DNA of 64,000 nt from an uncultured Acidobacteriota bacterium (GTDB taxonomy: Bacteria > Acidobacteriota > Thermoanaerobaculia > Multivoradales > UBA5704), in the NCBI GenBank assembly GCA_963757335.1, contig CAVWRJ010000013.1:471803-535802 (forward strand), written 5' to 3'. Made by a program: the position numbers and the translations under genes. Position 1 is the first letter of the stretch, and each line of letters starts with the position of its first letter. The notes under the pieces were generated by a model. It did not search any database. It was not told the DNA's origin and saw only the letters and a program-made list of their open reading frames with translations. Of the stretch, positions 2,480 through 56,000 are shown in pieces.

Positions 2480-3622
2480 ATGTCCGAGCTCTTCGACCGA
2501 GACCCCTGGGCGCGGCTGCCCCGCACCCGGCAGGCCCTGGAGGCCGGCCTCGACCTTGGCGTGCACCTGGGAGCCCAGCTCCATGTCGACCTCCATGGCG
2601 AGGTCGTGGCCGATGCCGCCCTGGGGGAGAACCGGCCGGGCGAGCCGCTGACCCCCGACCACCTGATGCTCTGGCTGTCCTCGACCAAGCCGGTGGCGGC
2701 GGTGGCCGTGGCGCAGCTCTGGGAGCGCGGGCTCCTGGAGCTCGACGATCCGGTGGCCCGGCATCTCCCGGAGTTCGCCGCCGAGGGGAAAGAGGGAATC
2801 ACTCTCCGCCACCTCCTCACCCACACCGCAGGCATCCGCCTGCTCGACACCGGCTGGCCCGCCGCCTCCTGGGAGGAGATCGTGGCCCGCATCGCGGCCT
2901 CGAAGCCGGAGCCGCGCTGGGTGCCGGGGCAGAAGGCGGGTTACCACCTGGCCTCCTCCTGGTTCCTCCTCGGCGAGGTCGTCCACCGGCTCTCCGGGCT
3001 CCCCTTCGATCGCTACGTGCGGGAGGAGATCTTCCTCCCCCTGGGGATGGCCGACTGCTGGATCGGCATGCCGGCCGAGCGCTACCGGGCCTACGCCGAG
3101 GCTGGGCGGCTGGGGCTCCTCTACAACACCGAGGGCGCGCCGCCCCGCCAGCACACCTGGACCGCCGAGCCGCGGCTCACCGGCATCCACCCCGGGGGGA
3201 ACGGCTACGGCCCGATGCGGGAGCTGGCCCGCTTCTACGCCATGCTTTTAGGTCTCGGCAGCCTGGAAGGAGCCCGGGGGCTCTCGCCCCAGGCGGTCGA
3301 GGCGCTCACCGCCCGCCACCGGGTGGGGATGGTCGACCAGACTTTCAAGCACGAGATGGACTGGGGCCTGGGGTTCATCCTCGACTCCAAGCGCTACGGG
3401 GTCGAGACCGTCCCCTACGGCTACGGCCGGCTCTGCTCGACCCGCACCTTCGGCCACAGCGGCTACCGCTCCTCGACCGCCTTCGCCGACCCCGAGGCCG
3501 GCCTGATCGTCGCCCTGGTCATGAACGGCACTCCCTCCGAGGCCGCCCACGAGCGCCGCATCCGGGCCGTGCTCGACGCCGTGTATATGGATTTGGAGCT
3601 TAATCACCAGGTCAATAGTTGA
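2480..3622 (+). CDS. Serine hydrolase, beta-lactamase/esterase (class C-related) family
   Basis: 380-aa ORF; SxxK motif (SSTKPV), YxN-like and later HSG motif typical of beta-lactamase-fold serine hydrolases. Confidence 0.8.
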   Translation: MSELFDRDPWARLPRTRQALEAGLDLGVHLGAQLHVDLHGEVVADAALGENRPGEPLTPDHLMLWLSSTKPVAAVAVAQLWERGLLELDDPVARHLPEFAAEGKEGITLRHLLTHTAGIRLLDTGWPAASWEEIVARIAASKPEPRWVPGQKAGYHLASSWFLLGEVVHRLSGLPFDRYVREEIFLPLGMADCWIGMPAERYRAYAEAGRLGLLYNTEGAPPRQHTWTAEPRLTGIHPGGNGYGPMRELARFYAMLLGLGSLEGARGLSPQAVEALTARHRVGMVDQTFKHEMDWGLGFILDSKRYGVETVPYGYGRLCSTRTFGHSGYRSSTAFADPEAGLIVALVMNGTPSEAAHERRIRAVLDAVYMDLELNHQVNS

Positions 3623-8054: not shown

Positions 8055-9281
8055 ATGCTCAAGACGGAACTGCTGGAAATCCTGCGCAACGGGGAGAGCT
8101 CAGGGGTCGAGTTCAAGCTCGACACGATCGACAACCGCGTCTTGGCCAAGGAGTTGGTCGCCTTTGCCAACTTTCAAGGCGGCGCCGTGCTTCTCGGCGT
8201 GGCGGATGATGGGACGGTCCGCGGTATCGAGCGGTCGAGGCTCGAAGAGTGGGTGATGACCGCTTGCCGCGACAAGGTCAGGCCAGAGCTCATTCCTTAC
8301 TTCGAGGTTCTCAAGGACGTCGAGCCCGGCAAGGACGTGGCCGTGGTACGGGTGGACCGTGGCTGGTCCGTGCATCATGTCTGGCACGATCATCACCGAA
8401 CGTATTACATCCGGGTGGGCACCCGGAGCACCGAGGCCAGTCAGGAGGAGCTCGAAAGACTTTTCCAGCAACGCGGCGGCTTCCGGGTGGAGCTGCGCCC
8501 CGTCTCCGGCTCCGGCCTGGACGACCTCGACCGACGACGTCTACGCGATTACTTCGAGCGTGTCCGGCAGCAGAAGGCTGCTGAAGAGGATGAGGAGTGG
8601 CGAGAGCTGCTCTTGAATACCGAGTTGCTCAGTGACGAAGGTCCGAATCGACCCTGTACCGTAGCGGCTCTCCTACTCTTTGGAAAGAACCCGAACCGAT
8701 TTCTGCCCCAGGCAGGAATCGACGCGGTCGCCTATCCGGGCCGCGAGAAAGATTATGCCGCAAGGGAGCGGGCGAGCCTGCGCGGCCCCCTCACGCCTTT
8801 CTTCGATGCACGAGCCGAGCTCGTGGAGAACGGGGTCGTCGAGGAGGCCGTCGCCTTCGTGCGGCGCAACACAGGAGTGAGCGCACGGCTGGAGGCGGGA
8901 GCAAGGAGAGTCGAGGTTCGCGACTATCCGGAGGACGCGGTTCGCGAAACGATTGTGAATGCCCTTGTCCATCGCGACTACCTGCTCTCCGCCACGGACG
9001 TCGAGCTCTCGATCTATGAGGACCGTCTCGAGGTCATCTCCCCAGGCCAGCTCCCGAATGGCATCAACCCCGAGCGGATGCGGACGGGCTGCCGGGCTGC
9101 CCGCAATCAACTGCTCAAGGACGTGATGCGAGATTATGGCTACCTCGAGCACATGGGGATGGGAGTGCCGCGCAAGATCGTCAAGTCGATGCGGGAGCAC
9201 AACGGCACGGAGCCGGACCTCGTCGAGGACGGCGAACGCTTCCTCGTGCGGTTGTGGAAGACACTTCCCGTATCGCCCTGA
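8055..9281 (+). CDS. COG2865-type ATP-binding protein: Schlafen-like AlbA_2 domain + HATPase_c_4 domain (often annotated RecG-like / putative transcriptional regulator)
   Basis: Start moved to ATG 8055 (MLKTELLEILRNGESSGVEFK); AlbA_2 motifs (LAKELVAFANFQGGAVLLGVADDG) and C-terminal HATPase-like block (ETIVNALVHRDY...EVISPGQLP). Confidence 0.7.
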   Translation: MLKTELLEILRNGESSGVEFKLDTIDNRVLAKELVAFANFQGGAVLLGVADDGTVRGIERSRLEEWVMTACRDKVRPELIPYFEVLKDVEPGKDVAVVRVDRGWSVHHVWHDHHRTYYIRVGTRSTEASQEELERLFQQRGGFRVELRPVSGSGLDDLDRRRLRDYFERVRQQKAAEEDEEWRELLLNTELLSDEGPNRPCTVAALLLFGKNPNRFLPQAGIDAVAYPGREKDYAARERASLRGPLTPFFDARAELVENGVVEEAVAFVRRNTGVSARLEAGARRVEVRDYPEDAVRETIVNALVHRDYLLSATDVELSIYEDRLEVISPGQLPNGINPERMRTGCRAARNQLLKDVMRDYGYLEHMGMGVPRKIVKSMREHNGTEPDLVEDGERFLVRLWKTLPVSP

Positions 9282-9364
9282 AGTCTCCGCCCAAAGGGAG
9301 CCTAAAAAAAACCGCCCCGGGAGGCCGAAGCCTCGCCGGGGCCGGTCGAGCTGACGTTTCTTCC

Positions 9365-11251
9365 TTACTGGCAGGTCGCGAACGTGCCGGTGTCGTTGAC
9401 CGAGGGCGCCGCCAGGCCGTAGGGGTTCGAGTAGGTCTTGACGAGACCGGTATGAGTGTCCGTCACCTCGACCGAGAAGCCGACGTTGGTCGTCGCGGCG
9501 TAGAAGACCCAGTAGCTGTTGAAGCCGCTGCAGGCGTCGAGCACCTTGACCAGCATCTCGGTGTTGTCGGCGCTGAAGAACCAGAAGGCGCCCGAGTTGG
9601 CGTTGAGCTTCGTCGTGTGGCCGGGGCCGGTCTGGCCGTCGCCGGTCCGCCAGGTGACCCGCACCCGGAAGCGGTCGCCCGCCGTGCAGAGAGTGGTGTC
9701 GTCGTCCGTGCAGGACGAGGTGTCGCCGTTCTTGTCGAGCAGGAAGAGGGTCGAGGTCTTGCCCTCGCCCAGGGTGGCACCGCTGGGGTTCTGAAGGGTC
9801 AGGCGGACAGTCCTGCCACTCCCCTTGGGGTTGGCGAAGGTGTGAACCTCGAAGGTCTTCGCGCCCTCCTGGTCGGGGCTCCAGGTCAGGGTACCGGTGG
9901 TCGCCGTATAGTCGGTCCCGGCGAGCCCGCTGCCGTCGCTCGTCGTGTACTGGACCGAAGCGGCGCCGGCGTGGCCCGCGCTGCGCTCGACCGTGATCGT
10001 CGCGGTGTCGCCCGCGACCACCTGGAACGAGTCGGCCTCGAACTTGATCGTGCCGGGGTTGCCGCCCGGGCCGCCCGGCGGGCCGGGGGGATGGTCCTCG
10101 TGGCCCGGGCCGCCGATCGAGAGGAGCGCCACCCTGTGCTCCTGGGCGATCGTGGCGCCGCCCTGCGGGTTGGCGACGAGGAGCTTGACGGTGCCCGCGC
10201 CGTTGGGGAGGAGGGGCACGAAGAAGGTCTTCGTGCTCTCGTCGCCGGCCGCCCAGCTGAGGATGCCGGAGGTAGGAGAGTAGTCCTTGCCCGCCAGCGC
10301 CGTGCCGTCGATCGTCGTGTAGCCGACCGCGACCGCTCCAGCCGCGCTGCCCGAGCGCTCGACCGTGATCACCGCCTCGCCGGCCGAGGAGACGGCGACA
10401 TAGTCGTTTTCGTCGAAGCCGAGAACGCCCGCCCCACCGCCGCCACCGTCCCCGCCACCGCTCCCGGCGGGAAGGACGAGGATCGCCGTACCGCGGGTGG
10501 CGAAGATGGTGGCGCCGCCGGTCGGGTTGGCGAGGGCGAGCTGGATGGTCCGGCCGCCGCTCGTGGGCGACGGGAGGAGAGTGACGTTGAAGGTCTTGGC
10601 CGCGACATCACCGTTGACCCAGGAGAGGGTTCCCGAGGTGGGGACGAAATCGACTCCCGCCACCGCCGTACCGGCGGTCGCGCTGTAGCCGACGGTCACC
10701 GCGCCCGTCCCGCCCTCCGTCCGCTCGACATTCACGGTGACCACCGTCGTGCCCGCCGGAATCGTGAAGCTCGGCTCGTCGAAGCGAAAAACGCCGGGAT
10801 GGCTGTCGCCACCGCCACCGCCGCCGCTCCCCCCGGGGAGGACGAGGGTCGCCGTACCGCGGGTGGCGAAGATCGTGGCGCCACCGGTCGGATCAAAGAG
10901 CGCGAGTTGGATGGTCTTGCCGGCGCTTCCGGAGGGCGGCAACAGGGTGACGTTGAAAGTCTGGGTCGCCTGGTCCCCGTTGGCCCAGGAGAGAATGCCG
11001 GACGTGGGGACGAAGTCGGTGCCCGCCACCGCCGTGCCGGCGGTCGCGCGGTAGCCGACCGAGACCGCGCCGGTGCCGCCGCTCGAACGCTCGACCCGGA
11101 CGGTCACGACCGTGGTGCCCGCCGGGATGGTGAAGCTCGGTTCGTCGAACCGGAAGACACCGGGGCCGCTGTCCGTCGCCTGGGCCCGGCCGGCGAACGC
11201 CGGCAGGAGCAGGAAGGTCGCCATCGCCAGGATGGCCTTCAGGGTTCTCAT
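9365..11251 (-). CDS. Secreted protein with four Calx-beta domains and a conserved ~105-aa Cys-containing C-terminal domain (shared with 21155..22264 and 39127..40041)
   Basis: AGGAGG RBS 7 nt upstream of ATG 11251; signal peptide; 4 repeats with Calx-beta signature (AVxVGYxTxDGTAxAGxDY...GxLxW); C-terminal FWFF...NTEMLVKVLDAC...TDTHTGLVKTY domain. Confidence 0.8.
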   Translation of the reverse strand: MRTLKAILAMATFLLLPAFAGRAQATDSGPGVFRFDEPSFTIPAGTTVVTVRVERSSGGTGAVSVGYRATAGTAVAGTDFVPTSGILSWANGDQATQTFNVTLLPPSGSAGKTIQLALFDPTGGATIFATRGTATLVLPGGSGGGGGGDSHPGVFRFDEPSFTIPAGTTVVTVNVERTEGGTGAVTVGYSATAGTAVAGVDFVPTSGTLSWVNGDVAAKTFNVTLLPSPTSGGRTIQLALANPTGGATIFATRGTAILVLPAGSGGGDGGGGGAGVLGFDENDYVAVSSAGEAVITVERSGSAAGAVAVGYTTIDGTALAGKDYSPTSGILSWAAGDESTKTFFVPLLPNGAGTVKLLVANPQGGATIAQEHRVALLSIGGPGHEDHPPGPPGGPGGNPGTIKFEADSFQVVAGDTATITVERSAGHAGAASVQYTTSDGSGLAGTDYTATTGTLTWSPDQEGAKTFEVHTFANPKGSGRTVRLTLQNPSGATLGEGKTSTLFLLDKNGDTSSCTDDDTTLCTAGDRFRVRVTWRTGDGQTGPGHTTKLNANSGAFWFFSADNTEMLVKVLDACSGFNSYWVFYAATTNVGFSVEVTDTHTGLVKTYSNPYGLAAPSVNDTGTFATCQ

Positions 11252-31747: not shown

Positions 31748-31945
31748 TTGCCTGGCGGAAGCCAGGCATCGTATAATCGCATTTTGCACTACAAAAGGAG
31801 AGCAATTGAAGAAGCCACTTAAAAAAAGCGGAAGCTGGTCCTGTCGAAGGAAACCGTGCAGGCGCTGGACCTCGGACTTGTGCAGGGCGGCGTCAAAACG
31901 GATTCTTGCTACCTGAGCGCGGCAAATTGCCCCATTTTTTGATGC
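31748..31945 (+). other. Promoter-like TTGCCT-N18-TATAAT + AAAAGGAGAG RBS + TTG-initiated 36-codon basic Cys peptide ORF (31806..31916) + T-run; candidate small gene or sRNA
   Basis: Read directly in an AT-richer gene-free stretch after tRNA-Gln; peptide LKKPLKKSGSWSCRRKPCRRWTSDLCRAASKRILAT; 8-bp hairpin with GGAA loop at 31749-31768; GGCA/TGCC stem + TTTTTT at 31920-31940. Confidence 0.25.
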
Positions 31946-32080
31946 CCGGCAGCGATTAGCTGCCGAGAGCCCTCCGGTCCCCTGAGACCGGAGGGCTGCC
32001 CAGCTCCTGAAGCTCTACGGTATCCCGCCCATCCGAGGAGAACCGACGAGCCCGAACGGGAGCAGAAACTTAAAAGCCGA

Positions 32081-32500
32081 GCCAAAACGCCCTAAGCTCC
32101 AGTAAATCCCCCCTTAACTCCAGTTAAGCTCCGAAAAACTCGAATTGCGCCTCCGTAAACTGAAATAGGAAGCCCCTAAACTGGAGTTGGACCGGCCTAA
32201 ACTGAAATACGGAGCGCCTAACCTCTCTTTGTACCGCCCTAAACTGAAATACGGAGCACCAAAACTCTCGTTGCTCCTGCCTAAACTGAATTGCGGAGCA
32301 CCCAAACTCAGTTATCGGCGTTTCGCGGGAGCTTAGGGAGGTTTCGGCCGAGCTCGGAGACCTTAAGGCGGAGGTTATCGAGGTCCGGAACTCGCTTGGA
32401 GACCCCCGTCGTCACGTTGGGGACGCCGCGGAGGCCCTCAGGGACCCTCCTGGCGCGGTTGGAGACGGTCCCGCCGGCTTTATCGGGCAGGAGCCTCAGG
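32081..32500. repeat. Degenerate tandem array with 21-bp period (~20 units); early units CCTAAACTGAAATACGGAGCN, later units with GGAGACC core
   Basis: Segmentation into 21-mers by eye keeps CCTAAACT / GGAGC(N) in register across ~420 bp; stops in most frames; lower GC than flanks. Confidence 0.6.
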
Positions 32501-32825
32501 TTCTAGGGTGCTTTGAGACCAGGAAGCGCCCGCGCGAGCGCCTCACCCAGGGCAGGCGCCTGTAGCCCCTCAGGGCCGTATGACTTCAACATGGGCAAGA
32601 GTCGGGCCGGGCGGCACTACCCGCCGATCGAGCGTCCAACGCGGCGCTGGTCGCCGCTCAAGTCGAGCCAATCCCCCGCCGTGGGAGCCCCTCCACAGGC
32701 GATGAGAGGGAGTCATGGCAGCGGCGCTTTGTGGTAGCCTCCGGCCTCTCGCCAACCTCGTAGTCGAGACGGACTCCCGTGAGACGGACTCCCCCTGGGA
32801 AGCCAGCGCCAGTGAGCATGAAACC

Positions 32826-40052: not shown

Positions 40053-41486
40053 TCAGCCGAGAGTCCGCACGAACCGGTCGAACACCGTCTTCCTCTGCGT
40101 CTCGACGCAGAGGAAGACGGGGGCCTGCCTCCACCCCACGATGTTCGACACCGCGCTCCCGGCGGCCCCGAGCGTCACGGTCGCGAAGGGGAGCCCCTGG
40201 CAATGGCCGTCCCGGCTCGGGCCGCGGAAGAGGTGGACCTGCGGGAAGGGGGTTGGCGTGGCGTTGATCGAGACTTCGATCTGGGTGGTGAAGCGGTGCT
40301 CGGCAGGGAACCAGCGGGAGATGAAGCGGGTCACCTCCTCGTGAACCGGCCCGTCGTAGAGGAGCCGGTTGGGCGAGCCCGCTCCGAGGTCGCCGACGAG
40401 GGCGCCCGCGGTCGCATTGATCAGGAGCAGCTGGCGGATCTGGGCGGGCGGCAGATCCGGGAGCTGCTCTAAAAGAAGGGCGAGGGTTCCGGTCACGAAG
40501 GGCGCCGAGATCGAGCTGCCGGAGTTGACGGTGGGCTGCTCGCCGCCCTGGGTCGTCACGTCCTTCCCGGGCGCGAAGAGGTCGACGCAGCGGCCGAAAC
40601 CGGAACGTGGCGGGCGTTGATCGAGGATGTCGCTGATCCCCACGGTGATCGTCTCGGGCGAGCTGGCGGGGGTGGACTGGCAGGCGTCGGCGCCATTGTT
40701 GCCGGCGGCGTCGACCAGGAGGACCCCCAAGGCGTCGAGCTGCTGGAAGAGCGCCTCCTCGGCGGCGTTCGGGCCGAACCCGATATAGCTCATGTTGACG
40801 ACCGCCGGGACCGTGGGATTCGCCTGGCGCCAGGTGACGATGTCGTCCAGGGCGGCGAGCTCGGCGAAGCCGTAGATGTTGCCGGCGCAGTCGGCGATCC
40901 GCATCAGGAAGAGCGAGGCCTCCGGAGCGACGCCGTAGACCTTGCCAGCGGCAGCACTGGAGACGATCGTGGCGTGGGTATGGTCCGTCCCGCAGGTGTT
41001 GAAGACTCCCAGGCCGTCCGAGAGGTAGTCGGTGCCGCCGACGATCCGCGCCCCGAATTCGTCCAGGTTGGGGAAGATGCTGGTGTCGAGGACGAAGATC
41101 CGCACTCCGCGCCCGGTGTAGGGGCGGACGGCGTTGCCGTCCAGGGGGAGGGTCCGCTGGTTGACGCGGTCGAGCGGCCAGGGGGCGCCGTCCGCCGTCA
41201 GGTGGAGGGTCGGCAGAAGCTGGACGTCGTAGCCCTGGAAGGCCAGGAGCCGAGCGGTCTCGGCGGGCATCTCGGCCACCACGGTCCCGGGGAGGTTCCG
41301 AAGCTCGCGCCGGGGGACGAGGCCGAGGGGGCGGAAGAAGGTGACCAGGCGTGTCATCCCCGCGGAGTCCCGGGCCACGGTGTTGGTCCCCGCCCGCACC
41401 ACGTACTCTCCCGCGCGAGCGGCCGGGGAAAGGGCCAGGGTCCAGACCAGCGCGAGCAGGAACGGGAAGGGGGGGAAACGTCTCAT
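40053..41486 (-). CDS. S8-family (subtilisin-like) serine peptidase precursor
   Basis: ATG 41484-41486 with AGGAGG RBS and signal peptide MRRFPPFPFLLALVWTLALSPAARA; catalytic Asp (VLDTS), His (GTDHTHAT) and Ser (GSSISAPFVTG) blocks. Upstream in-frame (QGADDSR)n extension rejected. Confidence 0.8.
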   Translation of the reverse strand: MRRFPPFPFLLALVWTLALSPAARAGEYVVRAGTNTVARDSAGMTRLVTFFRPLGLVPRRELRNLPGTVVAEMPAETARLLAFQGYDVQLLPTLHLTADGAPWPLDRVNQRTLPLDGNAVRPYTGRGVRIFVLDTSIFPNLDEFGARIVGGTDYLSDGLGVFNTCGTDHTHATIVSSAAAGKVYGVAPEASLFLMRIADCAGNIYGFAELAALDDIVTWRQANPTVPAVVNMSYIGFGPNAAEEALFQQLDALGVLLVDAAGNNGADACQSTPASSPETITVGISDILDQRPPRSGFGRCVDLFAPGKDVTTQGGEQPTVNSGSSISAPFVTGTLALLLEQLPDLPPAQIRQLLLINATAGALVGDLGAGSPNRLLYDGPVHEEVTRFISRWFPAEHRFTTQIEVSINATPTPFPQVHLFRGPSRDGHCQGLPFATVTLGAAGSAVSNIVGWRQAPVFLCVETQRKTVFDRFVRTLG

Positions 41487-41573
41487 CGATCGACCTCCTG
41501 GTACAGCCCGACATCCTCTAAGTGGGTGCCTCGGGGGGGGCGGGAGGAGGACACTCTCATCGTCGCGACGCGG

Positions 41574-41888
41574 GTCGTCGGCGCCCGGGCGCGGGTCGTC
41601 CGCGCCCTGGCGCGAGTCGTCCGCGCCCTGGCGCGAGTCGTCCGCGCCCTGGCGCGAGTCGTCCGCGCTCTGGCGCAAGTCGTCCGCGCCCTGGCGCGAG
41701 TCGTCCGCGCCCTGGCGCGGGTCGTCCGCGCCCTGGTGCGAGTCGTCCGCTCCCTGGCGCGAGTCGTCCGCGCCCTGGCGCGAGTCGTCCGCGCCCTGGT
41801 GCGGGTCGTCCGCGCCCTGGCGCGAGTCGTCTGCGCCCTGGCGCGAGTCGTCCGCGCCCTGGTGCGGGTCGTCCGCGCCCTGGCGCCG
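41574..41888. repeat. Near-perfect 21-bp tandem repeat, ~15 copies, unit GTCGTCCGCGCCCTGGCGCGA
   Basis: Read directly; few point variants (GCGGG, CTGGT, GCTCT, TCTGC); each unit contains imperfect palindrome CGCGCC-CT-GGCGCG; open in frames of both strands (RPRPGAS / QGADDSR). Confidence 0.85.
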
Positions 41889-41935
41889 GTCCAAGCGAGC
41901 AGGAGCTTGGCATTGACCCTGCTAAACTAGCTGTG

Positions 41936-42220
41936 ATGAGCCCTATCCTGGAGAGATATCGAGAGGAGATCCTCACCGTAGCGACTCGCCACGGCGTCAA
42001 GAACGTACGCGTGTTCGGCTCTCTGGCTCGCGGGGAGGGTAGCGAGAGCAGTGACCTCGACTTACTCGTGACTCTCGGAGAAGGGCGTTCGCTTCTAGAT
42101 CTAATAGGTCTTAAGCAGGACGTGGAGGACATCCTGCATCGTCCGGTGGACGTGGTGACGGAGCTAGCCCTCTCTCCCTATCTGCGAGAGCGCGTCCTTG
42201 CCGAAGCCATTCCGCTATGA
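41936..42220 (+). CDS. mntA: MntA-type minimal nucleotidyltransferase antitoxin
   Basis: [18 protein letters not shown] NTase motif; ATGA overlap with hepT; start ATG 41936 (GTG 41933 possible), weak RBS. Confidence 0.7.
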
Positions 42221-42567
42221 GCCGAGACCAACTCTACCTTCGGCACGTGCTGGATGCGATTGTGAAGGTCGAGCGCTATGCTGCGGTGGGCCACCACGAG
42301 TTCATGGCCGCGTCCCACTGGCAAGATGCTGTGATCCGCCAGTTCGAGATTATCGGCGAAGCAGTGAAGCGACTCCCTTCTGAGGTTACCGAGCGCCGAC
42401 CTGACATCCCTTGGCGTCGCATCGCCGGTATGCGGGATGTCCTGATCCACAACTATATGGGCGTGGACCTGGAGGCGGTCTGGCAGGTTACGCAAGACGA
42501 GCTGCCCAACCTGAGACAGGCTATAGAGGAGCTCCTGGACAAGCAGGCGGGGGACCTGAGCCGGTAA
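42217..42567 (+). CDS. hepT: HepT-type (DUF86) HEPN toxin
   Basis: Rx4HxY motif (MRDVLIHNY); 116 aa; translationally coupled to mntA. Confidence 0.8.
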
Positions 42568-42643
42568 CGGCCCTTGTTGTACGACAAGTCTGTTGTACGA
42601 CAAGGTTGTCGTAAGGGTCAAGCTCTCTCCGGGCCTACTCACT

Positions 42644-43669
42644 TCACAGCAGGTGCCCGGCGCCTGGCCGCAGCGCCACCCGCAAGTCCGCCCCCACCGC
42701 CAGCGCCGCCCCCGGCGCCAAGTGCGCCAGGACCTCCTCCCCGCCTGGAAGCCGCAGGACCACCCGGTCGTAGGGGCCGAGCCCGCGCGAGTCGACGACC
42801 GTTGCAGGCACCCCACTCGGATCGACGATCAGATCCTCGGGGCGGACGAGGAGCTGCTGGCCTTCCAACGCGGGCAGGTCGAGAGCACCGAGCGCGGTGA
42901 CCGGCCGGCCGCCCTTCAGGGTGACCGGGAGGAGATTCGCCTCACCCAGGAAGCTCGCCACGAAGGGGTCGGCCGGGCGGCGGTAGAGGTCGAGGGGGGC
43001 GCCCGCCTGGACGATCTGGCCACGGTTTAGCACTACCAGGTGGCCGGCCAGGAGCATCGCCTCCTCCTGGTCGTGGGTGACGTAGAGGACGGTAGTCCCC
43101 AGGCCGGCCAGGAGGCGGGCGAGATCGGCGCGGACGGTGCGGCGGAGGCGGGCGTCGAGGGCCGAGAGCGGCTCGTCGAGGAGGAGGAGGGCCGGGCGGG
43201 GGGCGATGGCGCGGGCCACGGCGACCCGCTGCTGCTCGCCGCCGGAGAGCTCAGCCGGAAGGCGGTCGAGGAGCGCTTCGAGGGCGAGAAGAGCGGCGGC
43301 CTCCATGACCCGGCGCTCCACTGCGGACTTCGGCTGGCGGTTCTTGCGATAGCGGAGCGTGGTCAGGCCGAAGGCGATGTTCTCGCGTACGGTGAGGTGC
43401 GGGAAGAGGGCGTAGGATTGGAAGACCACCCCCACATCGCGCTTCTCGGTCGGCACTCCGGCCATGTCCAGGCCATCGAAGAGGACCGTACCCGCCGTGG
43501 GATGGAGGAGCCCGGCGAGGAGGCGCAGGAGGGTCGACTTCCCCGAGCCCGAGGGGCCGATCACCACCGTCGTCCGGCCTTCCAGGAGGTCGAACGACAG
43601 GCCTCCTTCCCCGCCGAGCACCGGCATCTCGGCATAGGCGTAGGCAACACCGCGCACGGCGATCTTCAC
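42644..43669 (-). CDS. ABC transporter ATP-binding protein (PotA/FbpC-like, with C-terminal TOBE-like domain)
   Basis: Walker A GPSGSGKST, signature LSGGEQQRVAVARA, Walker B LLLLDEP; GTG start overlapping upstream permease stop. Confidence 0.85.
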   Translation of the reverse strand: MKIAVRGVAYAYAEMPVLGGEGGLSFDLLEGRTTVVIGPSGSGKSTLLRLLAGLLHPTAGTVLFDGLDMAGVPTEKRDVGVVFQSYALFPHLTVRENIAFGLTTLRYRKNRQPKSAVERRVMEAAALLALEALLDRLPAELSGGEQQRVAVARAIAPRPALLLLDEPLSALDARLRRTVRADLARLLAGLGTTVLYVTHDQEEAMLLAGHLVVLNRGQIVQAGAPLDLYRRPADPFVASFLGEANLLPVTLKGGRPVTALGALDLPALEGQQLLVRPEDLIVDPSGVPATVVDSRGLGPYDRVVLRLPGGEEVLAHLAPGAALAVGADLRVALRPGAGHLL

Positions 43670-54599: not shown

Positions 54600-54860
54600 C
54601 CGCGCTCGACCCTCTCGGTCGGGAACTCGAGCCGGTGCGGCGGGATTTTATGCCGTCCGAATCGAACTCCGAGACGTCCTCGTTCAACTCCGAGAGCCTC
54701 GGGCAGATCTCCAAGGGCCGTGGGCGGAATTTCGAGACCTTCGGTCAGAACCCCGAGGGGTTTGGCGGGAACTCGCAAGGGGTCTGTTGGAACTCGGAGA
54801 GGTTTGGCAGCAACTCGGAAGGGTTCGGTTGGAATTTCGAGGGGTTCCCGAGACTCGTGG
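54600..54860. repeat. Degenerate tandem array with 21-bp period (~12 units), consensus approx GGAACTCGGAGRGGTTYGGYN; same family as 32081..32500
   Basis: Units read in register (ggaatttcgagaccttcggtc / agaaccccgaggggtttggcg / ggaactcgcaaggggtctgtt / ggaactcggagaggtttggca / gcaactcggaagggttcggtt / ggaatttcgaggggttcccga); region is lower GC and has no convincing ORF. Confidence 0.55.
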
Positions 54861-54927: not shown

Positions 54928-56000
54928 ATGGCCGCAGACGAGACCCTTCCCACGCCGGAGCGCCTGCTCGCCCTGATCGGTGGCATGGCGGGCCGGCCGG
55001 TCGTCCTCCTCGTCGACCTCGTGGCGGACCGGTTCGTGACCGGTATCCCGAAGCGGATCAGCCGCGAGGCGCCGGTCCTCATCCTCTCCTACCAGGGGGA
55101 GGTGCTGACCCCGGGCGGCGGGGCCAACGCGGTGGCGAACGTGGCGGCGCTCGGCGGCCGGCCCCTCCCCCTCGGGGTGGTAGGGGACGATCCGAGCGGC
55201 CGCGAGCTCGTCGCCGCTCTCGAAGCTCTCGGGGTCGAGACCGCCGGCATCCTCACCCGGCCGGGCTACCGCACTCCCACCAAGGTCCGCATCCTGGGCG
55301 GCGGTCGGCATTCGATCAAGCAGCAGATCGTGCGCTACGACATCGAGGATCACCTCACCCTGACCGAGGGCGAGCGCCAGCGTCTTCGCCGAGCGCCTCG
55401 CCGGCTGGGCCGGGCTCGCGCCGCGGGCCGCCATCCTCTCGGACTACGGCTACGGCGCCGTCGAGCCGGCCCTCCTCCCGGTCGTGCGGCGCCGCCCTCG
55501 GGCCGGCGGCGACCCTGGTCTGCGACAGCCGCTACCGGTTGGGCGAATTCGCCGGTCTGGACGGCGCCACCCCCAACGAGGAGGAGGCCGAGGCGCTCCT
55601 CGGGGGGGCCATCGAGGACGATCCCGGCCGGCTGGCGGCCGGGGGGAGGCGGCTCCTCGACCGGCTTGCCGCCCGCTTCCTCCTCATCACCCGGGGGAGC
55701 CGCGGGATGAGCCTGTTCACCTCCGGCGGTTCCGGGAGCCCTGGCGGAGCGGCGCACCTGCCGGTCCACGGCACCGACCAGGTGGCGGACGTCACCGGGG
55801 CGGGCGACACGGTGATCGGCACCTTCGCCCTCGCCCTGGCGGCGGGCGCCACGCCGCTCGAAGCCGCCCTCCTCGCCAACTACGCCGGCGGGGTGGTGGT
55901 GATGAAGATGGGGACCGCCACCCTCTCGCCCGAGGAGCTCGCGCGGGCCGTCCGGAGCGATCCCCGCCCCATCGAGGAGCTTCAATGGGCCAGGTCGTAA
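54928..56000 (+). pseudogene. hldA: D-glycero-beta-D-manno-heptose-7-phosphate kinase (HldA / RfaE domain I-like, PfkB family) disrupted by two +1 frameshifts (~55380 and ~55495)
   Basis: Homologous translation continues 54928-55380 in frame 1, 55382-55495 in frame 2 ([27 protein letters not shown]), then frame 0 to 56000 (...[11 protein letters not shown]...); ORF track shows the three pieces. Confidence 0.65.

Follow-up and report, generated by a model that had tools for sequence, protein, structure and literature searches.

A 21-bp tandem repeat of variable unit number upstream of an S8 peptidase gene in uncultured Acidobacteriota, probably a non-coding minisatellite

Results and Discussion

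The window, i.e., the whole 64-kb stretch of DNA that was analysed, contains a minisatellite of 21-bp units in the gap that separates the final gene of an ABC-transporter operon from the gene of a secreted S8 peptidase. We consider it likely, with a probability of about 70%, that this array is a slippage-driven, dispensable and nearly neutral non-coding VNTR. Whole 21-bp units are gained and lost at the ATPase-peptidase junction among related metagenome contigs, and the array is dispensable, since peptidase genes with the same start exist without it.

The array and its flanking genes

The features of the region are the following.

41574-41888, no strand: minisatellite of 15 head-to-tail 21-bp units (Tandem Repeats Finder and consensus matching)
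41560-41573: degenerate partial 16th unit at the peptidase-proximal edge of the array, CCGCGTCGCGACGA in the peptidase sense
41487-41559, minus strand: conserved leader of the peptidase with an AGGAGG ribosome-binding site (sequence comparison)
41483-41560, minus strand: 25-codon leader ORF MRVSSSRPPRGTHLEDVGLYQEVDR, whose TGA overlaps the peptidase ATG as ATGA
40053-41486, minus strand: S8 (subtilase) peptidase, 477 aa (Pfam Peptidase_S8, E 1.6e-25; signal-peptide-like N-terminus)
41889-41935, plus strand: 47-nt spacer separating the array from mntA; it forms the end of the mntA cassette that faces the array (same junction in L112 and L114)
41936-42220, plus strand: mntA, minimal nucleotidyltransferase antitoxin, 94 aa (Pfam NTP_transf_2, E 8.8e-15, residues 15-92; PADLOC PDC-S09)
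42217-42567, plus strand: hepT, HEPN RNase toxin, 116 aa (Pfam HepT-like, E 1.1e-26)
42568-42622, plus strand: distal end of the cassette (the homology of cassette-free relatives resumes at 42623)
42644-43669, minus strand: ABC-transporter ATPase, final gene of the ABC operon (homologue comparison)

Tandem Repeats Finder reported the array at 41569-41886, with a period of 21, 15.1 copies, 92% matches, no indels and a score of 538. The consensus of the unit is GTCGTCCGCGCCCTGGCGCGA on the plus strand and TCGCGCCAGGGCGCGGACGAC in the peptidase sense. When up to three mismatches were allowed, GTCGTCCGCGCCCTGGCGCGA gave 15 in-register matches covering 41574-41888, with a chance expectation of 0.01 in the 64-kb window, and no match elsewhere in it. 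Six units carried no mismatch, four carried one, four carried two and a single unit carried three. The mean identity of the units was 95.2% with respect to their own consensus and 91.7% between pairs, the latter value being 82.4% in the array of BP_61 (contig L028). These data agree with the initial annotation, which had placed a near-perfect 21-bp × 15 tandem repeat in the 449-bp gap between the starts of the S8 peptidase (41486) and mntA (41936). The array edge YCGCGTCRCGAC also terminates the arrays of L028, L112 and L115. The units of the window abut each other with no unique spacers between them, and a CRISPR array was rejected for this reason.

With respect to the peptidase gene, the AGGAGG sequence lies 7 nt 5' of the ATG. 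The full-length close homologues of the protein (P0002, P0003, P0004 and P0006) are 474-479 aa in length and have the same MRR/MRC start in the upstream sequence read, and a protein identical to the peptidase of the window, also of 477 aa, is on record. The nearest homologues belong to Acidobacteriota metagenome bins, and the remoter homologues of the ATPase are labelled Thermoanaerobaculia. The stretch from the array to the ATG is 94% identical to those of L112 and L028, the value for the peptidase coding sequence being 88%. In every genome compared, the array-free L030 included, the leader ORF terminates at the peptidase start as ATGA, while its own start is found after the array in the window (41560) and inside the last unit in BP_61; in L112, this ORF spans the array only because of a 1-nt deletion. 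Judging from the sequence, the 25-codon ORF may encode a translationally coupled leader peptide, or the leader may be a conserved regulatory element.

On the other side of the array, mntA and hepT overlap by 4 nt and their translations show the RX4HXY motif (RDVLIHNY) and the GS...DLD motif; the pair qualifies as a HepT/MntA (type VII) toxin-antitoxin system. MntA has been described as an adenylyltransferase that neutralises HepT by adenylylation, and the passage describing this is silent on DNA binding (PMC8138530). No DNA-binding domain was detected by Pfam in the MntA of the window, which consists of a bare nucleotidyltransferase domain. A protein identical to the HepT of the window is encoded on two Logan contigs. 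In relatives, the ATPase gene is immediately followed by either the array or the peptidase gene. Neither a sigma-70-like promoter nor a terminator-like site was predicted in 41300-42100. Just 3' of hepT, positions 42575-42613 hold two copies of a 16-nt direct repeat (TGTTGTACGACAAG..) and overlapping inverted repeats (TACGACAA / TTGTCGTA), which are conserved in L114 and may constitute the terminator of the cassette or a recombination end.

Copy number at the same junction in relatives

The relatives compared were metagenome contigs selected for encoding close homologues of two proteins of the window, the peptidase and the ABC ATPase (42644-43669). Contig L027 is the same assembly as L028 (100% identical over 11,769 bp) and both were therefore counted once. 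The state of the junction was as follows.

Window: 15 units, with the mntA/hepT cassette
L115: 14 units, without the cassette
BP_61 (L028): 13 units at 2729-3001, from the ATPase stop to the peptidase, without toxin-antitoxin genes
L112: 10.5 units at 9176-9409, the last unit having 20 nt only
L114: same arrangement of ATPase, hepT and mntA as the window, followed by 45 nt (one recognisable unit, remnant of about 2 units) and the conserved leader
L029, from the same metagenome as L114: begins in the conserved leader and carries the peptidase
L030 (peptidase 78% at the amino acid level): 0 units, the ATPase stop lying 32 nt before the peptidase ATG
L109 (peptidase 72% at the amino acid level): 0 units
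L111 and L113 (nearest relatives by ATPase, with flanks at 96% and 94% at the nucleotide level): cassette and array gone, and only the last 70-100 nt of the peptidase gene left

The comparison of array length across strains that had been proposed in the initial annotation thus yielded, for related metagenome contigs, values of 15, 14, 13, 10.5, about 2 and 0 units, and the likely length polymorphism claimed there is borne out by the 14, 13, 10.5, about 2 and 0 units of the relatives. The closest pair of arrays is that of L115 and BP_61: the 13 units of the latter recur in the former in unchanged order, with one unit added and two point differences, and about 650 nt around the array are 99-100% identical, the identity falling to 80-92% in the upstream ATPase sequence. 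An exact difference of one unit within a tract of 99-100% identity indicates a true VNTR.

These same data bear on the question of whether the array, or its copy number, could be an assembly artefact, which we consider highly improbable. Tandem units that are nearly identical are hard to assemble, and the 15 units of the window are an assembly count and not a read-based one. In this regard, a study titled 'Tandem repeats lead to sequence assembly errors...' reportedly treats tandem repeats as a cause of such errors. However, three assemblies that are independent of one another (BP_61/L027, L112 and L115) have orthologous arrays at this junction. In addition, a Logan contig (run ERR11571141) with an identical hepT starts 360 nt upstream of it, which corresponds to position 41857 of the window, 32 nt inside the array; this equivalence was deduced from gene coordinates, and it is there that a k-mer assembler is expected to break.

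A palindrome was also observed at the opposite end of the peptidase gene. Within the last 70 nt or so of the coding sequence, 40085-40120 (minus strand) contains a perfect 15-bp inverted repeat, GTCTTCCTCTGCGTC-GA-GACGCAGAGGAAGAC. In L111 and L113, the rest of the peptidase gene has been lost and the sequence from just before this palindrome onward has been kept. It may mark the deletion breakpoint or be the retained terminator of a convergent downstream gene.

The array and the mntA/hepT cassette

The array is not tied to the adjacent mntA/hepT cassette. BP_61 and L115 carry it without the cassette and, conversely, L114 carries the cassette with almost no array, so the link with MntA/HepT that was implicit in the initial annotation is not supported. 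An operator role of the array for MntA/HepT was rejected on the same grounds, as each occurs without the other.

The cassette itself is variable. At 7131-9128 of L112, a MntA that is 98% identical at the protein level to that of the window is found at the same junction with no hepT next to it. The genes replacing hepT encode a P-loop-like protein of 379 aa followed by a coiled-coil-like protein of 170 aa; the first one gave weak, below-threshold Pfam matches to GTP_EFTU and AAA_16, and no PADLOC match was obtained for either of them. These two genes may be an undescribed partner module for the minimal nucleotidyltransferase. At the DNA level, the window and L112 are 96.5-96.8% identical in mntA and 97.8% identical in the 47-nt spacer, compared with 89.0% in the ATPase and 88.2% in the peptidase genes. 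The higher identity of mntA and the spacer with respect to the core genes indicates that recombination carried the cassette from one lineage to another, one of its ends lying on the array edge.

Conservation of the unit

The 38 units of three arrays (window, BP_61 and L112) share a nearly invariant GGACGAC block, while the centre of the palindrome varies. The consensus is essentially unchanged across lineages whose flanking genes diverge by about 12%, the one difference being that position 5 is a G in the window but an A in BP_61. One possible interpretation of such conservation is that of a protein-binding platform, similar to iterons or operators, in which a regulator would bind every 21-bp unit from the same side of the helix and control the peptidase or mntA. 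The period of 21 bp, equal to two helical turns, and the GGACGAC block are in accordance with it, as is the finding of 8 sites matching the 12-mer core (at most one mismatch) outside the array, with 3.1 ± 1.8 expected for the whole window. Nevertheless, those sites lie in GC-rich sequence and do not exceed the shuffle maximum, which was also 8, and the enrichment of the core elsewhere in the window is not convincing. Furthermore, the unit number ranges from 0 to 15 among close relatives in which the array can be dispensed with, no DNA-binding gene accompanies the array, mntA and the array each occur without the other, and no sigma-70-like promoter was predicted around them in 41300-42100. A platform of this kind is in our opinion unlikely.

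The search for the 21-mer that had been suggested in the initial annotation was carried out beyond the window. Against 185,579 species genomes, it gave 25 single matches, one per genome, scattered over unrelated phyla, among which BP_61 was the one orthologous locus. The matches outside that locus were taken as due to chance. A dispersed repeat family was consequently rejected, the BP_61 locus being the only meaningful match beyond the window in that scan. When metagenomes were scanned for pairs of conserved cores at a distance of 21 bp, 78 loci and no orthologues were obtained; judging from their unit sequences, most of these loci appear to be acidic heptad repeats, which could be coding, or other unrelated arrays. 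A single one of the 78, L042 (contig Ga0154020_10008814, 11413-11664), has a similar-looking non-coding unit: its 21-bp array comprises at least 12 units GCGCGGACGACCGCGCAGGGC and runs off the contig end. The palindrome of this unit is centred on ACGA, and homology with the array of the window is putative. The L042 array lies about 200 nt 3' of a Fic/DOC gene that has a wHTH match and is itself about 1.3 kb from the methylase gene of a type I restriction-modification system.

Coding capacity of the array

All six frames are open through the array of the window, and the two in-frame readings pointed out in the initial annotation, (RPRPGAS)n with mntA and (QGADDSR)n with the peptidase, are indeed present. 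The array could then be translated as an N-terminal extension of the peptidase or of MntA, or as part of a MIRU-like coupled upstream ORF. The geometry of the short leader ORF, with its ATGA on the peptidase start, fits the latter option, and a called ORF of 108 aa in L112 crosses the array to that same stop. In addition, the entropy by codon phase over the 38 units was 2.42, 2.01 and 3.72, and the phase with the highest value is the third position of the RPRPGAS frame; the variable positions of the unit are 1, 5, 8, 9, 10 and 15, and they do not display a clear codon periodicity.

Several results are, however, opposed to translation. In BP_61, the frame of the peptidase contains two stops (TGA and TAG) after the ATPase gene and then no ATG, GTG or TTG before the real ATG, and the second frame is interrupted by a TGA in unit 4. 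In L112, the last unit of 20 nt shifts every frame. The leader ORF of the window begins after the array. MntA and the peptidase are found in unaltered form in genomes that lack the array or have about 2 units of it left. When the translations of the six frames were joined and used as a protein query, nothing was returned; this search was uninformative, and low-complexity correction is the suspected cause. It was already argued in the initial annotation that the array is non-coding because the peptidase has its own AGGAGG, ATG and signal peptide, and the length of the full-length close homologues (474-479 aa), together with their common start, sustains that argument. An N-terminal extension or an upstream ORF was therefore rejected given the lack of a conserved start, the stop in the BP_61 frame, the frame-shifting unit of L112 and the completeness of the proteins without the array, and we find translation of the array very hard to credit. 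With tandem copies beyond chance, variation in unit number and location outside coding sequence, the array displays the defining traits of a non-coding bacterial VNTR or minisatellite.

Folding and strand asymmetry

The initial annotation had also proposed that the array can extrude 15 short GC hairpins. Arms of 6 bp around a 2-nt loop cannot make a hairpin, and the unit folds instead as a 5-bp stem with a 4-nt loop. As DNA, the hairpin of a single unit has energies of -6.5 and -7.2 kcal/mol on the two strands, which are not unusual with respect to shuffled sequences (z -1.5 and -1.3). For each of the two strands, the whole array of the window has a much more stable fold than shuffled sequences (z -7.0 and -6.9), and its predicted minimum-energy structure is one long fold-back. 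The palindrome is intact on the peptidase-sense strand in only 7 of the 15 units of the window, 2 of 13 in BP_61 and 0 of 10 in L112, and it decays with no compensation: over 186 cells (31 distinct units), a single both-sided change was found. Consequently, the proposal of 15 hairpins was not upheld. Local hairpins and a terminator were both rejected in view of the predicted long fold-back, the ordinary stability of the single hairpin and the lack of a terminator-like site.

The stems have drifted differently on the two strands. The non-Watson-Crick pairs comprise 33 G-U and 15 mismatches on the plus strand, versus 2 and 46 on the other strand, and the stem cells that remain paired are 91.9 and 76.9%, respectively. 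More pairs are retained on the plus strand because nearly all changes give G-U. In the peptidase sense, there are 18 G-to-A changes and 3 C-to-T changes, and the G-to-A changes affect five of the six stem G positions and none of the three non-stem ones.

These figures could be read in favour of a structured plus-strand element, either RNA or single-stranded DNA, with the same sense as mntA and complementary to the peptidase leader, composed of repeated hairpins separated by GUCGUC. Such an element would account for the strong folding of the window array, for the excess of G-U-compatible changes and for their restriction to stem positions. Against it, the advantage of the BP_61 array over shuffles is only modest (z -2.7 and -4.2) and the hairpin of the single unit is unremarkable. 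Column shuffles attained the observed pairing in 288 of 500 trials on the plus strand and in 301 of 500 on the other strand, which means that there is no covariation. A search of the array against Rfam gave no match at E values up to 1, and no promoter-like site that could drive the transcript was predicted. A known structured RNA family was rejected in view of the Rfam and covariation results. Moreover, a C-to-T mutational bias of the plus strand yields the same asymmetry; together with a few old variants spread by unit duplication, this bias would explain it without selection. We therefore regard a structured element as very unlikely, bearing in mind that the invariant block and the strand asymmetry could reflect constraint instead of drift plus C-to-T bias.

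Comparison with known repeat systems

The array resembles the bacterial VNTR or minisatellite loci used in MLVA typing in its intergenic head-to-tail units of tens of bp, in the gain and loss of whole units and in its homogenisation within the array, and it qualifies as a further example of this already known kind. It differs from the usual loci in that it is found in uncultured Acidobacteriota, in metagenome assemblies only, with a very GC-rich and partly palindromic unit. Moreover, its polymorphism has been observed between related lineages, not yet within one population.

Other repeat classes share some of these traits. MIRU units measure approximately 46-101 bp, and the 21-bp unit reported here falls outside this size range. 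The likeness to MIRU lies in a unit length that is a multiple of 3, in the location between co-oriented operon genes, as the ATPase and peptidase genes of BP_61 and L115 are, and in the geometry of the -4 overlap, given that the MIRU ORF overlaps the downstream start codon by 4 nt (PMC12548453). Nevertheless, in the case studied here the ATGA overlap belongs to an older leader, which is also present without the array (L030), and the ORF enters the array only in some genomes. As regards the dispersal of MIRU, one locus was seen for the array in the 64-kb window, and the species-genome scan gave one match per genome, BP_61 included.

The REP and BIME elements of enterobacteria are dispersed, occur in hundreds of copies and are clustered in alternating orientation. 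Like the array, they are imperfect, GC-rich palindromes that lie in the transcribed spacers where ABC-transporter operons end, and they could form RNA structure. They were rejected, since all units are direct, the locus is single and the palindrome has been lost from most units. Iterons and operator arrays, known from plasmids and from toxin-antitoxin promoters, likewise consist of helix-phased direct repeats of about 20 bp, and the array of the window lies beside a toxin-antitoxin cassette. This class was rejected considering that there is no replication gene, no DNA-binding domain in the antitoxin and no promoter-like site, and that the array and the cassette are separable.

Proposed origin and significance

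For the slippage-driven, nearly neutral VNTR that we favour, units would be added and removed by replication slippage or by unequal recombination between near-identical, GC-rich and partly self-complementary copies. In line with the recent expansion claimed in the initial annotation, the array of the window would have been expanded or homogenised more recently than the others, as its units are more alike. Steps of 21 bp keep both the reading frame and the helical face, so that changes in unit number are well tolerated, and the sole likely effect of the array would be a passive one, namely the lengthening of the peptidase leader in 21-bp steps and the supply of repeated homology at a spot where cassettes are inserted, swapped and deleted. 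As to its origin, the array and about 50 nt of unique flank were apparently inserted into a junction that measures 32 nt in L030, and a gain of the array is favoured by parsimony because both L030 and L109 lack it.

A more novel view of the locus goes beyond drift. According to it, the array would be a strand-specific single-stranded DNA or antisense-RNA element, in which each unit combines the invariant GTCGTC block with a mostly G-U-compatible hairpin, and would serve at the same time as a landing pad for the exchange of mntA cassettes. The exchange is supported by the identity of mntA and its spacer (96.5-97.8%) between lineages with core genes at 88-89% and by the identical junction on the array edge. 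As a whole, we judge this combined interpretation to be quite unlikely.

Although it is of minor mechanistic importance, the VNTR offers a length marker, ready for use and highly discriminating, by which strains of this uncultured lineage of Acidobacteriota could be told apart. Arrays of this kind may also break short-read assemblies, and one contig does end at or inside a window-type array. In a broader sense, the end of the ABC operon is a small hypervariable spot: close relatives have acquired, exchanged or lost a protease gene, a minisatellite and mntA-based cassettes there. If the asymmetric drift and the invariant block were under selection, the locus would be an unusual repeated regulatory or structural element.

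Other repeats in the window

Two other repeat arrays are present in the window, as pointed out in the initial annotation, but the 21-bp period ascribed to them was not confirmed: both fit a period of 42 bp better (81 and 78% matches, versus 61-66% at 21 bp), and neither of them is related in sequence to the 21-bp array or to the other when compared within the window. The first one, at 32156-32309, has 3.7 copies of the unit TAAACTGAAATACGGAGCACC TAAACTCTCGTTGCACCGGCC and lies in a less GC-rich stretch of about 900 bp (31806-32714, GC 0.63), which contains no ORF of at least 90 aa outside 32570-32714. The second one, at 54741-54834, has 2.2 copies, is rich in GGAACTCG and GGTTTGGC motifs and is located just upstream of an ATG-initiated ORF starting at 54928. 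Finally, a tandem duplication with a unit of 366 bp was found at 10441-11164 (2.0 copies, 79% matches, Tandem Repeats Finder score of 942).
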